Shown: in pieces, positions 21,667-23,578 of the stretch | How the letters are laid out: each line of letters opens with the position of its first letter | Position numbering within the stretch: position 1 is the stretch's first letter | Assembly (NCBI GenBank): GCA_964464565.1 | Contig: CAYXGK010000002.1 | Coordinates: 1,858 to 34,612 of the forward strand | Direction of reading: 5' to 3' | Origin: an uncultured Muribaculaceae bacterium | Lineage (GTDB): Bacteria; Bacillota_I; Bacilli_A; RF39; UBA660 | DNA: 32,755 nucleotides | Notes under the pieces: generated by a model | Databases searched by the model: none | What the model was told of the DNA's origin: nothing | Seen by the model: only the letters and a program-made list of their open reading frames with translations | Made by a program: the position numbers and the translations under genes

Positions 21667-23030
21667 ATGATTTTGTTGGAAATGTTTATGCTCCAACAAT
21701 TGATCCTAAAACGATTTTTGATATACATATGTTGGATGAAATAATGCAAAACCATGATTCAAAATATGGAAAAGGATCAGGTTTATTAGCATTAATTGCT
21801 TTTTCTGACCCTAAAAGTGTTCATTATAATAACTCTAATATTATTACCTCACTAAACGGTGCAAGAAACCTAATGAGCAATTTTACCCCTGAACAGATAA
21901 AATACATTGTTAATAATTTTTATCTAAATCAACAAAATGTTAGAGATCTTCTAGATAAAAATAATTCATCAAAACCTTCTCCACTTGTTTCTCCAAGCAA
22001 TATATTAACTTATAGATCAGTAGTTAGTACATTTAATGATTATCCTATTCATAAATATTATGGGTCTGATCAAGCAGCAATAGAAGATATGTGTGTTTAT
22101 TATGATGCTAATAATAATCCTTACACATATAGAGAAGTTGTTAGGATAATGAATAAAGCTAAGGAAGAATACAAACCTTTGCCAATTTTTCGAAAAATAG
22201 TAACAAAAGAGTATTTTAGACTAAAAGATAAATTAATTGATTCGGGTTTTTCGCAAACCGATGCTTCTGTTTTAATGTCAACAGTAAATGATGCAGGAGC
22301 ATGTTCTTATGCTGCTGTTTGTAACGAAATATTCATGATGTTTAGAGATAATGAAAAACTTTTTGAAGAAAATTTTGGATACTCAATGTATAAAAAAAAT
22401 GAAAATGGTAGTAAGGTATTAAATACAGCAGAATTGTTATTAGATATGTATGTGTTTGCAAACTCATCTAATAATAAAAGAAAATTTGTTATTGAACATA
22501 ATAATGGCAATAAAACGCTTAACAATAAATTCTTAAGTAATAAAGTTGATCCATTAAACAGAAGATTGCTAAATGCTACTTCTCAAGAATTCTTATCTAA
22601 ACATAATGTTGGAAAAAATAATAATCTTATAAACGAATTTTTAACTTCAAAAAATCCAAATCTATATTATACTTCGGAAATTGCGTATAATAATAATGAC
22701 AAAAAAGTAATTCCAGAACAAGAATACACTGATGCATTAAAACAAATTAAAAATAAGTTAGATTCGGGTTACTTAGCATCTATGGATTTCTTCTACAACC
22801 CTAAAAAAAATGACGTAATAATAAATATGTACTCTTATGACACTTACAAGTATAATAGTACTTCAACTGCTGTTTGGCAAGAGGGCGGTGGACACGCTGT
22901 ATTTATTACAGAAATAAATAATAAAGGTATAGTAGTTTCTTCATGGGGTAATAAATATCTTATTCCTCATTCTGATTTAATGAATGGTGGAAGATTTCAA
23001 ATAGAATTAATATATGGAGGTATCAAATGA
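19500..23030 (+). CDS. giant polymorphic-toxin-like protein 2 (1176 aa): shared N-terminal module plus unique C-terminus with a papain-like Cys/His peptidase motif set
   Basis: Residues 1-677 are identical to the ORF at 14394. In the unique tail, 'NDAGACSYAAVCNEIF' (C935) and 'WQEGGGHAVFITEINNKGIVVSSWGNKYLI' (H1132) match the clan CA pattern G-x-C...GGHAV...(N/S)SWG. Confidence 0.6.
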   Translation: MNINEEIFRSLYLELDNNKEALNTSSLLFDKAVNGTMDSRLKIGVINGKISSIETSFIKLKKENSENIDLSMNVKRYFDDLSNVLNMKIGTLSGEIPFSMYNDRDGISWIEKNMNKIEEQKANKATEFNNENIDIDALLEYYPDFKNYLEKFEKEYPFLKKLSAEGKKKLYEEAYYIYLTSQLNSNYYVNRDEILEIKKEQESLNISFSAISNVDAQSWSKEYKEKVKTTITGEGFDFIEYHQRYEYLVNKNYNDLTKEEMVEYDALDENINYIGEIAFKIKKNEDKLKAYGINSISIVNELESAYQSIKQTESSFVYGYIKYTNDFDEFVESRNNDYDYSFKHNGFREYSKYVNDDQRKIFDYLSINYGRESAENYYKSNLEEDFIIAKGVDEAYSYLEKINDENVFLQSGITAWEGLQDGFEGYFRNVGNMFAPTKKISSDDVKIQLIMKAFEGKILTDTLGEDRAKEVLEKLEKGEYTKDDIIKILNNEGKDYNSVLDGYVFNDENIKNSILKNMYTTSMVVGNMLPAMIAGKISAVVLKTTAFANLPVGTILTGISSGGSARNNALIDGYSEGEALAYSLVTGATTGLLEYYLSPFEGIGKNSVKFDSKTIMGVFRKFGLSAVSNVTEEIIEDSVQTLLIDNIMLGKTVTVDEFLDSSWETIKTAIMVSAFMGAPSITLNLGKIGSEKISNIKITPENISKLADIFKIENSTLKKQKLNDFVGNVYAPTIDPKTIFDIHMLDEIMQNHDSKYGKGSGLLALIAFSDPKSVHYNNSNIITSLNGARNLMSNFTPEQIKYIVNNFYLNQQNVRDLLDKNNSSKPSPLVSPSNILTYRSVVSTFNDYPIHKYYGSDQAAIEDMCVYYDANNNPYTYREVVRIMNKAKEEYKPLPIFRKIVTKEYFRLKDKLIDSGFSQTDASVLMSTVNDAGACSYAAVCNEIFMMFRDNEKLFEENFGYSMYKKNENGSKVLNTAELLLDMYVFANSSNNKRKFVIEHNNGNKTLNNKFLSNKVDPLNRRLLNATSQEFLSKHNVGKNNNLINEFLTSKNPNLYYTSEIAYNNNDKKVIPEQEYTDALKQIKNKLDSGYLASMDFFYNPKKNDVIINMYSYDTYKYNSTSTAVWQEGGGHAVFITEINNKGIVVSSWGNKYLIPHSDLMNGGRFQIELIYGGIK

Positions 23031-23578
23031 AAAACAATTTAATTATAATAATAAACAACATAATTTATGATGAGTTGGGTTTAGAAACTATAGAAAATGA
23101 ATTAACAAGAAACAATGTTTTTCCTAAACAAACTGATGAATTTATAAAAGATAAATTAAAAGCCAAATATTTTTTCTTGCTTAATGATTTATCTTTTGAC
23201 AGGTTAAACAAAGATGAAATTGATCAAATCAATCATTTTTATCAAAATGGGATGGAGTCTGAGTTAATAGATACTATAAAAACAAAATATTTAAAAATAA
23301 TTATACCAGATAGAAAAGAAGGCTACTTTAATATGTTTGGAACAAGTGACCAATATTTAGTTCCAACAGATGCGATTGTTTTAGGTTTCAATTATATAAG
23401 ATATAAAGAAGACTATGATGAAATTAGTGATAATACTAATGAATCATTAATTATAAAAGAATTAAATAATATTCAAGATGTTTTGGGACCAGAGAAAGGT
23501 CTAAAAATTGCCGTTCTTAAACTTGATGAAACAGCTATTTTATATGACAATGAATTTGAAGAAACAATTCAAAAATAA
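23027..23578 (+). CDS. candidate immunity protein for toxin-like protein 2 (183 aa)
   Basis: ATGA start/stop overlap with the upstream gene. GGAGG lies 7 nt upstream, inside the toxin's last codons. Cytoplasmic-looking and acidic, with no recognised motif. Assigned by position only. Confidence 0.45.
   Translation: MKNNLIIIINNIIYDELGLETIENELTRNNVFPKQTDEFIKDKLKAKYFFLLNDLSFDRLNKDEIDQINHFYQNGMESELIDTIKTKYLKIIIPDRKEGYFNMFGTSDQYLVPTDAIVLGFNYIRYKEDYDEISDNTNESLIIKELNNIQDVLGPEKGLKIAVLKLDETAILYDNEFEETIQK

Follow-up and report, generated by a model that had tools for sequence, protein, structure and literature searches.

LXG toxins of the T7SSb, among them TelA-D/TipA-D of Streptococcus intermedius, EsaD, TspA, EsxX and YxiD (PMC10765036, PMC12478183), were used for comparison with the locus described here. 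No protease is listed among the LXG toxins of T7SSb in the available parts of these two reviews, and no characterised protease-type toxin of a Gram-positive type VII system was found in the literature searched. The Cpe1/Cpi1 pair of Escherichia coli (T6SS/CDI) comprises a papain-like (C39-like) cysteine protease toxin which cleaves GyrB and ParE; this papain-like warhead of Gram-negative systems was characterised in 2025, and the structure of Cpe1 together with Cpi1 has been solved (PMC12136450). Papain-like domains of polymorphic toxins had been predicted in 2012, namely Tox-PL1, Tox-PL-2, Tox-PL3, Tox-PLC39 and Tox-PLOTU, with Imm35 as the family-specific immunity protein of Tox-PL1 (PMC3482391).

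The window analysed here, a stretch of DNA of 32,755 nucleotides, contains two toxin genes in tandem, flanked by aspS and uvrC and located away from the T7SS core. We consider it about 75% probable that toxin 2 is a polymorphic toxin of the T7SSb type and that, with its partner, it represents two new families, one of papain-like toxins and one of cytosolic immunity proteins. The pair belongs to an established type of system and is not a new kind of system. Like the LXG toxins, toxin 2 is a large protein without a leader, in which the N-terminus is helical, the middle region varies and the C-terminal toxin can be swapped, and a predicted immunity gene is located directly downstream. The toxin gene is composed of the following parts.

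19500..23030, + strand: toxin gene 2, open reading frame and translation of 1176 aa (P0001)
21012..21587, + strand: Gly/Ala-rich hydrophobic segment of the shared module, aa ~505-696 (phmmer and BLAST similarity, hydropathy)
21681..22046, + strand: pre-toxin linker, aa 728-849, part of the swapped cassette (jackhmmer; end of the identity with toxin 1)
22047..23009, + strand: predicted papain-like Cys/His hydrolase toxin domain, aa 850-1170 (phmmer family, AF2, Foldseek)

Residues 1 to ~720 of toxin 2 are 97% identical to the neighbouring toxin 1 (1607 aa), and the tails are unrelated. At the nucleotide level, the first 2031 nt of both genes are identical and nothing beyond is related, with the identity of the proteins ending between aa ~678 and 727. 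This is the arrangement of a conserved delivery module with a swapped C-terminal cassette. An assembly artefact is an unlikely source of the tandem genes, since the junction between tail 1 and the second copy of the repeat is unique; three toxin genes in a comparable array, found in an unrelated metagenome (L050), also speak against it. In the shared module, the hydropathy of toxin 2 (KD19) exceeds 1.4 in a single stretch, aa 523-542. This stretch lies in the Gly/Ala-rich segment, which is the centre of similarity to other toxins and the portion of the N-terminal module found most often among other carriers of the tail. The linker immediately precedes the tail in 67 of 202 homologues. P0001, P0002 and P0003 gave no meaningful match to Pfam or NCBIfam. 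A promoter and terminator scan of positions 19200-23800 returned fewer promoter-like sites than shuffled sequences and no terminator directly after the partner gene.

Several observations point to type VIIb secretion. The relatives P0010, P0028 and P0163 adjoin genes for FtsK/SpoIIIE proteins (EssC) of ~1540 aa; WXG100 genes were called beside two of them, and the third has a row of small genes (~90-107 aa). The source genome, too, encodes a 1535-aa EssC and WXG100 proteins on contig C7, not adjacent to toxin 2. Relatives beside EssC/WXG100 genes and such a cluster in the same genome are further features shared with LXG toxins. Unlike these, the N-terminus of toxin 2 lacks the Pfam LXG domain (PF04740; no match of P0001 at E<=0.1, and none at E<=10 anywhere in the genome, which is 74% complete), and no Lap1/Lap2-like genes were found upstream in the window, where toxin 1 starts 71 nt past the end of aspS and only a 64-aa ORF precedes toxin 2. 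Neither a Lap-like partner nor T7SS genes flank the toxin within the window. In relatives, upstream genes of 90-125 aa exist. When the small upstream proteins of two such loci (L006 and L008) were compared with the source genome by tblastn, no match was obtained, nor was there one for the Lap-like, WXG100 and DUF4176 proteins encoded at the locus of a relative. From this context we infer that the delivery system is type VIIb, which corrects the earlier reading; toxin 2 itself would be exported.

The tail carries the residues that an earlier note on this DNA had singled out as a papain-like peptidase signature, a cysteine (C935) and a histidine (H1132) about 197 residues apart. Direct reading bore this out: VNDAGACSYAAVCNEIF begins at residue 929 and contains Cys935, and GGGHAVFITEINNKGIVVSSWGNKYLI begins at residue 1129 and contains His1132, so that the distance is exactly 197 residues. 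The sites of interest in the domain are listed below.

22302..22304, + strand: codon of the predicted nucleophile Cys935 in the motif G-A-C-S-Y-A (conserved in 209/209 copies)
22443..22445, + strand: codon of Asp982, candidate third catalytic or oxyanion residue (209/209)
22893..22895, + strand: codon of the predicted general base His1132 in the motif G-G-G-H-A-V (209/209)
22938..22949, + strand: S1147-S1148-W1149-G1150, counterpart of the papain N-S-W-G (alignment of 209 copies)

The note had made conservation of the Cys and the His in homologues a test of its proposal, and both are invariant in all 209 aligned domain copies from other proteins. The motif is therefore far beyond chance, and a chance occurrence was ruled out. 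G933, D982 and G1150 are likewise invariant, and G960, N975 and N988 are conserved in 208 copies each, the two asparagines flanking D982. The two other cysteines and the other histidine show no conservation across the 209 copies (the whole protein has 3 Cys and 10 His). In the S-S-W-G motif, S1147 is a serine in 199 of the 209 copies (95%), S1148 is conserved in 91%, W1149 in 95% and G1150 in 100%. Since a serine replaces the Asn of N-S-W-G, the papain triad is not literally reproduced: the position of the papain Asn, ~16 residues after the His, is occupied by S1147, and an Asn/Asp third residue is absent there. D1159 is conserved in only 90% of the copies, and D982, N975 and N988 are situated between Cys935 and His1132 in the sequence. 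At positions 993-994, P0001 has Lys-Arg where 89-96% of relatives carry Gly-Gly, and judged from these residues this copy of the domain could be altered.

A phmmer search with aa 801-1176 against 1.84 billion representatives, clustered at 50% identity, yielded 579 matches at E<=1e-3, of which 132 reached E<=1e-30. The family is found mostly in uncultured Bacilli with small genomes that inhabit the gut of humans and herbivores. The tail had no sequence match in Pfam, NCBIfam or the PDB; neither phmmer with P0001 nor a profile of the trimmed tail alignment (A3) matched a PDB chain, and a profile in which the helical N-termini were retained (A1) found coiled-coil or designed helical proteins only. 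At the family level, Peptidase_C39_2 (PF13529) was touched by 3 of 26 members (best E 9.1e-5) and BtrH_N (PF14399) by one (E 0.005); no other Pfam family was touched. P0001 itself did not match the Pfam C39 or C39_2 models (PF03412, PF13529) at E<=1, and the domain is more than twice as long as the 143-position Peptidase_C39_2 model.

The tail was modelled with AF2 at high confidence (pLDDT 94.2, pTM 0.92). In the model, Cys935 (model residue 90) is the second residue of helix 89-102 and lies in its first turn, and His1132 (model residue 287) stands at the start of strand 286-294 in a six-stranded C-terminal sheet. The S-S-W motif is found at the end of the following strand (298-303). The model thus has the clan CA arrangement of a Cys at a helix N-terminus and a downstream His on a β-strand of the C-terminal sheet, as had been read from the letters (GGHAV followed by (N/S)SWG). 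Foldseek against the PDB placed the C39 peptidases PCAT1 and LahT, Josephin-type deubiquitinases, Lpg2622 (C1), IdeS/IdeC and calpain at the top, and most of the top named matches in BFVD were C1A papain, cathepsin B, AvrRpt2-like and calpain proteins. The majority of the best matches in both libraries are papain-clan enzymes, all at weak similarity (best E 0.023 in the PDB, where nothing was found at E<=1e-3, and 1.7e-3 in BFVD; TM-scores <=0.33). The earlier likeness to papain/C1 and C10-type enzymes held for the papain clan as such and failed for the types named, the nearest relatives being C39-like. An hhalign comparison of the tail profile with the C39 (PCAT) and three C39_2 proteins of the same genome was not significant (probability <1%; the templates were single sequences and too weak), and a visual comparison aligns the region of the His strand, 'G.PV.L.I ... 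H.V.ITG ... V.S.G', with one C39_2 protein of this genome. Sequence family and model together support a papain-like cysteine hydrolase domain with Cys935 as predicted nucleophile and His1132 as predicted general base.

As in Cpe1, the warhead of toxin 2 would be a clan CA Cys/His enzyme related to the C39 bacteriocin-processing peptidases, with an adjacent cytosolic immunity protein and probably a cytoplasmic target. Unlike Cpe1, the carriers of the toxin 2 domain are Gram-positive and linked to T7SSb, an Asp is absent at the C39 triad position, no PDB chain was matched by sequence, and Cpe1 does not appear among the best 50 Foldseek hits. With the domains of Zhang et al. 2012, toxin 2 shares a predicted papain fold at the extreme C-terminus of polymorphic toxins, occasionally internal, and an accompanying predicted immunity protein specific to the family, as Imm35 is for Tox-PL1. 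The Tox-PL1, Tox-PL-2, Tox-PLDMTX and other Tox-PL Pfam models did not match P0001 or 25 relatives at E<=1, and the signature G-A-C-S-Y-A ... N ... D ... N ... G-G-H-A-V ... S-S-W-G differs from NC-H-DxQ (Tox-PL1), C-NxxH-DN (Tox-PL-2) and C-[DE]H-[DE]-R (Tox-PL3). The immunity family is new relative to the 2012 set as well.

The tail occurs on many unrelated N-termini, and no more than 11 of ~200 tail carriers have the N-terminal module of toxin 2. A minority of proteins carry the domain internally or in several copies, with other toxin domains after it, a placement that fits a processing role as well. Such a role, in which the papain-like domain would mainly be an auto-processing ('releasing') peptidase that frees modules of its carrier and not the warhead, is improbable. 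It is favoured by proteins in which the internal domain is followed by an EndoU nuclease (P0064), an ADP-ribosyltransferase (P0197) or a transglutaminase-like domain (P0042), and by giant proteins with four to five copies (P0007, 5914 aa; a 6816-aa frame on contig G148:C32); a dual use in toxicity and processing was proposed for Tox-PL1 (PMC3482391). Against it, the domain lies at the extreme C-terminus in P0001, and 182 of the 243 domain matches are no farther than 25 aa from the end of the protein, where nothing is left to release. Moreover, a dedicated partner family accompanies the domain even where it is internal or repeated (L027, G148), and a purely cis-acting processing domain would need none.

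This partner is encoded by the gene that overlaps the end of toxin gene 2.

23016..23020, + strand: GGAGG, ribosome-binding site for the partner, within the final codons of toxin gene 2 (sequence reading)
23027..23578, + strand: 183-aa partner, predicted cytosolic cognate immunity protein (ATGA overlap, linkage, co-occurrence)

The partner ATG overlaps the TGA of the toxin gene and the GGAGG lies 6 nt upstream of it, in agreement with the coupling described before. A toxin/immunity type of coupling, proposed at that time from the overlap, is now backed by conservation, linkage to the tail and co-divergence. As far as computation reaches, none of the three observations that the note had named as refuting its proposal was made. 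A homologue of the partner is present in 22 of 25 related loci, nearly always directly downstream of the toxin gene; the downstream genes of relatives encode 182-188 aa and are 28-30% identical to the 183-aa protein. Among genomes, homologues were found in 12 of 13 that carry the tail and in 2 of 188 without it (Fisher p=2e-16, with kin not independent). The distances of tail and partner are correlated (r=0.70, a value reached in none of 2000 permutations), and the partner follows the tail regardless of the N-terminal module. A Pfam scan of 23 partner homologues returned noise only, and the 183-aa protein had no Pfam match. Its AF2 model (pLDDT 86.9) has no fold neighbour in the PDB according to Foldseek (best E 0.27). 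Judged from gene order and co-occurrence, the 183-aa protein is very probably the matching immunity protein of the tail and the representative of a new cytosolic family.

Less probable still than a processing role of the domain is that the 183-aa protein serves as a tail-specific chaperone or export adaptor, or that the pair has no antagonistic role. T7SSb toxins do require dedicated small partners, namely Lap1/Lap2 and DUF4176 chaperones (PMC12478183). The genes of these known targeting factors lie upstream, and their products bind to the N-terminal domain or to the middle one, whereas the partner described here is encoded downstream, is translationally coupled and tracks the tail. In addition, a separate DUF4176 gene follows the partner gene in at least one relative locus (L006), and the partner diverges faster than the tail (mean identity 28% versus 40%), both of which speak against a chaperone. 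So do orphan copies of the partner in two genomes in which no tail was found (G037, G129); orphan copies are typical of immunity genes.

Least probable is a CHAP- or NlpC/P60-type amidase or endopeptidase of the cell wall, which would attack peptidoglycan from the outside, either to lyse cells or to help secretion: such enzymes are papain-fold Cys/His enzymes too, T7SSb loci recruit them (EssH, PMC13059805) and one BFVD match of the tail is a phage morphogenesis/wall hydrolase, but the CHAP and NLPC_P60 Pfam models matched none of the 26 members, the top structural matches are C39, Josephin, C1, IdeS and calpain and not NlpC/P60, and the partner, which should be exported if its target were an extracellular wall hydrolase because the producer is monoderm, has no TM segment, signal peptide, lipobox or hydrophobic segment in any member of its family (maximum KD19 <=1.03).

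In the preferred reading, toxin 2 belongs to the LXG-like polymorphic toxins that bacteria use against each other by way of type VIIb secretion. The helical N-terminal module and the Gly-rich hydrophobic segment would serve export and delivery, and the swapped cassette (aa ~728-1176) would end in a papain-like cysteine hydrolase of ~320 residues. Cys935 may act as nucleophile and His1132 as general base, with D982, N975 and N988 probably completing the active site. Once it has entered a neighbouring Gram-positive cell, the domain would most likely act in the cytoplasm and cleave an essential protein; deamidation or transamidation, which had also been considered before, appear less likely. The producer would be protected by the translationally coupled 183-aa cytosolic protein through binding of the domain.

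A more far-reaching version of this reading is tentative, with the odds against it: the family might be the first T7SSb-delivered toxin family that kills via site-specific proteolysis of an essential cytoplasmic protein, and might thereby represent the Gram-positive counterpart of Cpe1. It would then form a branch of the papain clan that is independent and much larger, with an unusual catalytic arrangement, in which an invariant Asp/Asn cluster stands between the Cys and the His in the sequence and joins this pair, and with an immunity fold without a solved relative.

The tail family is abundant (579 clusters) and wholly unannotated, and competition factors are almost unknown in small-genome gut Bacilli. 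Two new families are available for annotation, the toxin domain and the immunity protein, and the predicted catalytic residues are ready for mutagenesis. If the reading is true, the substrate of the toxin 2 domain could reveal a new vulnerable target in Bacillota.

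Toxin 2 (P0001) and the small gene behind it lie in AT-rich DNA (GC ~25% in the window) on contig C2 of a MAG (G000) of 0.96 Mb and 74% completeness.

19500..23030, + strand, ORF of toxin 2 (P0001), 1176 aa
23027..23578, + strand, ORF of the partner, the predicted immunity protein, 183 aa

The earlier note had read a papain-type Cys/His pair in the C-terminal tail of toxin 2, and translation confirmed both positions and spacing: Cys935 (codon 22302) is located within 'VNDAGACSYAAVCNEIF' (motif start at residue 929) and His1132 (codon 22893) within 'GGGHAVFITEINNKGIVVSSWGNKYLI' (motif start at residue 1129), 197 residues apart in a protein containing three cysteines. 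The coupling of the two ORFs was likewise read in the sequence, the partner's ATG overlapping the TGA of P0001 as ATGA, with GGAGG as ribosome-binding site at 23016-23020, 6 nt before the ATG.

The whole of P0001 had no match in Pfam, NCBIfam or the PDB sequences, and a profile search of PDB sequences with the tail was empty. An exhaustive phmmer search with aa 801-1176 against 1.84 billion representatives recovered 579 tail relatives at E<=1e-3, 337 at E<=1e-10 and 132 at E<=1e-30. Tail-bearing proteins are 270 to 5900 aa long, and the C-terminal end is at most 25 residues away for 182 of 243 domain hits (202 retrieved proteins). The core common to the copies spans aa ~897-1168, preceded in most by an N-terminal sub-domain from aa ~850. 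Precomputed Pfam domains are all but absent from the 87 word-indexed relatives, of which the few with a name are called 'hypothetical protein [Bacilli bacterium]'. Judged by these searches, the tail is a genuine, widespread domain without annotation. P0007 (5914 aa) and a 6816-aa open frame in G148, a genome of the same order (C32:2473-12042), contain four to five papain-like domain copies each. Contigs L012/L006 (CAVEJT010000005.1), L018, L030 and L032, which bear this Gram-positive toxin type and in one case EssC and WXG100 genes as well, were deposited under the MAG labels Bacteroidaceae, Muribaculaceae and Methanobrevibacter; their presence there is probably binning contamination of the public MAGs.

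Among 209 full-length domain copies aligned with MAFFT, the Cys and His singled out earlier are conserved throughout (209/209 each), as are G933, D982 and G1150. G960, N975 and N988 are present in 208 copies and Y937, A938, S1147, S1148 and W1149 in 91-99%, while C865, C941 and the remaining tail histidines are variable. The family signature, G-A-C-S-Y-A ... F-G ... N ... L-x-x-D ... N ... G-G-H-A-V ... V-S-S-W-G, is retained in P0001 at all its residues, with Ser occupying the position of papain's Asn. P0001 has K993-R994 in place of the Gly-Gly seen in 89-96% of relatives.

AlphaFold2 modelled aa 846-1176 from a 70-sequence alignment with a pLDDT of 94.2 and a pTM of 0.92. Helix 89-102 of the model has Cys935 (model residue 90) as its second residue; strand 286-294, part of a C-terminal sheet of six strands, contains His1132 (model residue 287), and S-S-W ends the strand after that of His1132; as modelled, this placement is papain-clan topology. 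Foldseek returned no strong neighbour of the tail model (no PDB match at E<=1e-3, TM-scores <=0.33), and clan-CA enzymes make up most of the leading matches, though weak. The PDB leaders comprise the C39 peptidase domains of PCAT1 and LahT, Josephin-type deubiquitinases, Legionella Lpg2622 (C1), IdeS/Mac-1, IdeC and the calpain core, and the named BFVD matches a C1A papain, Peptidase_C1, cathepsin B, an AvrRpt2-like protease and a calpain-like protease. When 26 tail members were scanned singly against Pfam, Peptidase_C39_2 was found in three (best E 9.1e-5) and BtrH_N in one, and none matched the Tox-PL models, CHAP or NlpC/P60. Alignment of the tail with the C39 and C39_2 proteins of G000 by hhalign was not significant. 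From the model and these matches, we conclude that the predicted fold is papain-like and closest to the C39 branch, as a distant, enlarged offshoot, with the caveat that papain's Asn is replaced by Ser. The papain-like fold proposed in the earlier note is thereby supported, if by weak clan-CA matches, whereas the likeness to C1 and C10 enzymes gives way to the C39 branch.

The genes directly 3' of the tail-bearing P0010, P0028 and P0163 (182-188 aa) align end to end with the partner at 28-30% identity. A partner homologue was found in 22 of 25 loci of species-representative genomes, nearly always immediately 3' of the toxin gene; the other three have the domain inside a longer ORF, which in two cases runs past the contig end, and in the third, L024, the next 3.7 kb contain no homologue. 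The partner still stands 3' of the giant gene in L027, with its internal domain, and in G148, with its repeated one, a single homologue (C32:21842-22390) coming after the 6816-aa frame. Of 201 genomes from the same order, 13 (10 of 98 genera) have the tail, 14 the partner and 12 both (Fisher p=2e-16, related genomes not being independent); one genome has a weak partial tail match only, and two have orphan partners. Pairwise identities of tail and partner correlate (r=0.70, 0/2000 permutations as high), although linkage alone would already produce some correlation, and the partner diverges faster (mean identity 28% vs 40%). Orphan partner genes are located at G037:C3:9888-10382 and G129:C16:9788-10054, both genomes having given no tail hit, and another genome from the same genus has a decayed copy at G040:C8:7417-7800, interrupted by six in-frame stops. 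Hydrophobic segments are absent from the whole partner family (max KD19 1.03), the partner has no Pfam match, and its AlphaFold2 model (pLDDT 86.9, pTM 0.83) has no fold neighbour in the PDB. In a monoderm, a protector that is soluble and leaderless implies a toxin with a cytoplasmic site of action.

On long contigs, P0010, P0028 and P0163 adjoin ~1540-aa FtsK/SpoIIIE (EssC) genes, two of them with WXG100 genes alongside; small helical-size genes surround the toxin in all three, and a DUF4176 gene follows the partner in one. Such genes are hallmarks of LXG-toxin loci of type VIIb secretion (T7SSb) (PMC10765036, PMC12478183). Two results count against P0001 as a strict LXG toxin: Pfam LXG matched nothing in P0001 or elsewhere in G000, and no Lap-like genes were found upstream of the window's toxins. 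Contig C7 of G000 has a 1535-aa EssC with WXG100 genes, an 82-aa gene and a 1212-aa protein on its flanks; the last is likely a further T7SS toxin.

G000:C7:2417-6055, - strand, 1212-aa leaderless protein inside the EssC/WXG100 cluster, unrelated in sequence to P0001
G000:C7:11726-12634, - strand, 300-302-aa protein adjoining EssC, WXG100-like N-terminus (E 1.8e-5)
G000:C41:~4800-5015, 325-aa protein resembling the 300-302-aa protein
G000:C113:1097-1501, 208-aa C39_2 protein

The 300-302-aa protein has a C-terminal Peptidase_C39_2 above the Pfam cut-off; from the C7, C41 and C113 proteins, G000 therefore has several distinct T7SS-linked papain-clan proteins. In the window itself, 8690-11258 holds three unannotated ORFs (223, 139 and 476 aa), the first weakly WXG100-like (E 0.017), and 28752-31799 encodes a 1015-aa protein with an N-terminal DUF5411 (E 2e-36) in a three-gene block otherwise unannotated.

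Upstream of P0001 lies a second toxin gene.

14394..19217, toxin 1, 1607 aa
14352-16425 and 19458-21531, near-perfect direct repeat of ~2.07 kb, 41-nt leader plus 5' toxin-gene DNA
L050:2280-17393, three toxin genes in a tandem array (1603, 1194 and 1450 aa) on a metagenome contig

Toxin 1 and P0001 share 97% identity over residues 1-~720 and are then unrelated; the first 2031 nt of both genes and 41 nt upstream are identical, and identity fades across codons 678-727. The repeat implies that duplication or gene conversion took place recently and that the site is a probable recombination/deletion hotspot; the two genes form a tandem pair with one delivery module in common and two swapped cassettes. 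Since only 11 of ~200 tail carriers resemble the N-terminal module of P0001, mostly in its Gly-rich hydrophobic part (aa ~505-696), the tail is a mobile cassette. That the tandem genes are an assembly artefact is argued against by the analogous three-toxin array in an unrelated metagenome (L050). There, each toxin gene has a ~110-aa gene overlapping its start upstream, which has no counterpart in the window, and a small gene downstream; the middle toxin carries the papain-like tail and a 227-aa partner homologue. The 870-residue tail of toxin 1 has no Pfam, NCBIfam or other match; next to it comes a K/E-rich ORF of 64 aa (19219-19413), whose AGGAGG lies inside the last codons of toxin 1. A similar pairing is seen in L050, where small genes of 61 and 68 aa go with the large toxins (1603 and 1450 aa), whose tails are not homologous to that of toxin 1.

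P0001 would be exported by T7SSb, as relatives and the apparatus of G000 suggest, and might enter a neighbouring cell, speculatively helped by the Gly-rich hydrophobic segment. There the predicted Cys935/His1132 dyad, possibly completed by D982, N975 or N988, would hydrolyse a cytoplasmic target, and the translationally coupled partner would provide self-protection. By analogy, the fold neighbours (C39, Josephin, C1) and the case of Cpe1 favour peptidase chemistry. An additional processing role may exist alongside the toxin role: in some relatives, internal copies precede EndoU, ART or transglutaminase-like domains, and Zhang et al. (PMC3482391) likewise proposed such a role for Tox-PL1. Deamidase or transglutaminase chemistry is a possible but less favoured activity of the tail.

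T7SSb toxin-immunity pairs are well known, and the tail family with its partner is no new type of system; the predicted immunity protein family is new. Papain-like warheads are an established category in polymorphic toxins (PMC3482391), and one such toxin, Cpe1, has a known target (PMC12136450). The tail family differs in fitting none of the Tox-PL1, Tox-PL-2, Tox-PLDMTX, C39 and Cpe1 models. A 2023 review of T7SSb lists no protease among toxin activities, and none was found in the later literature searched. The tail and partner families are useful for annotation and offer a good experimental entry point.
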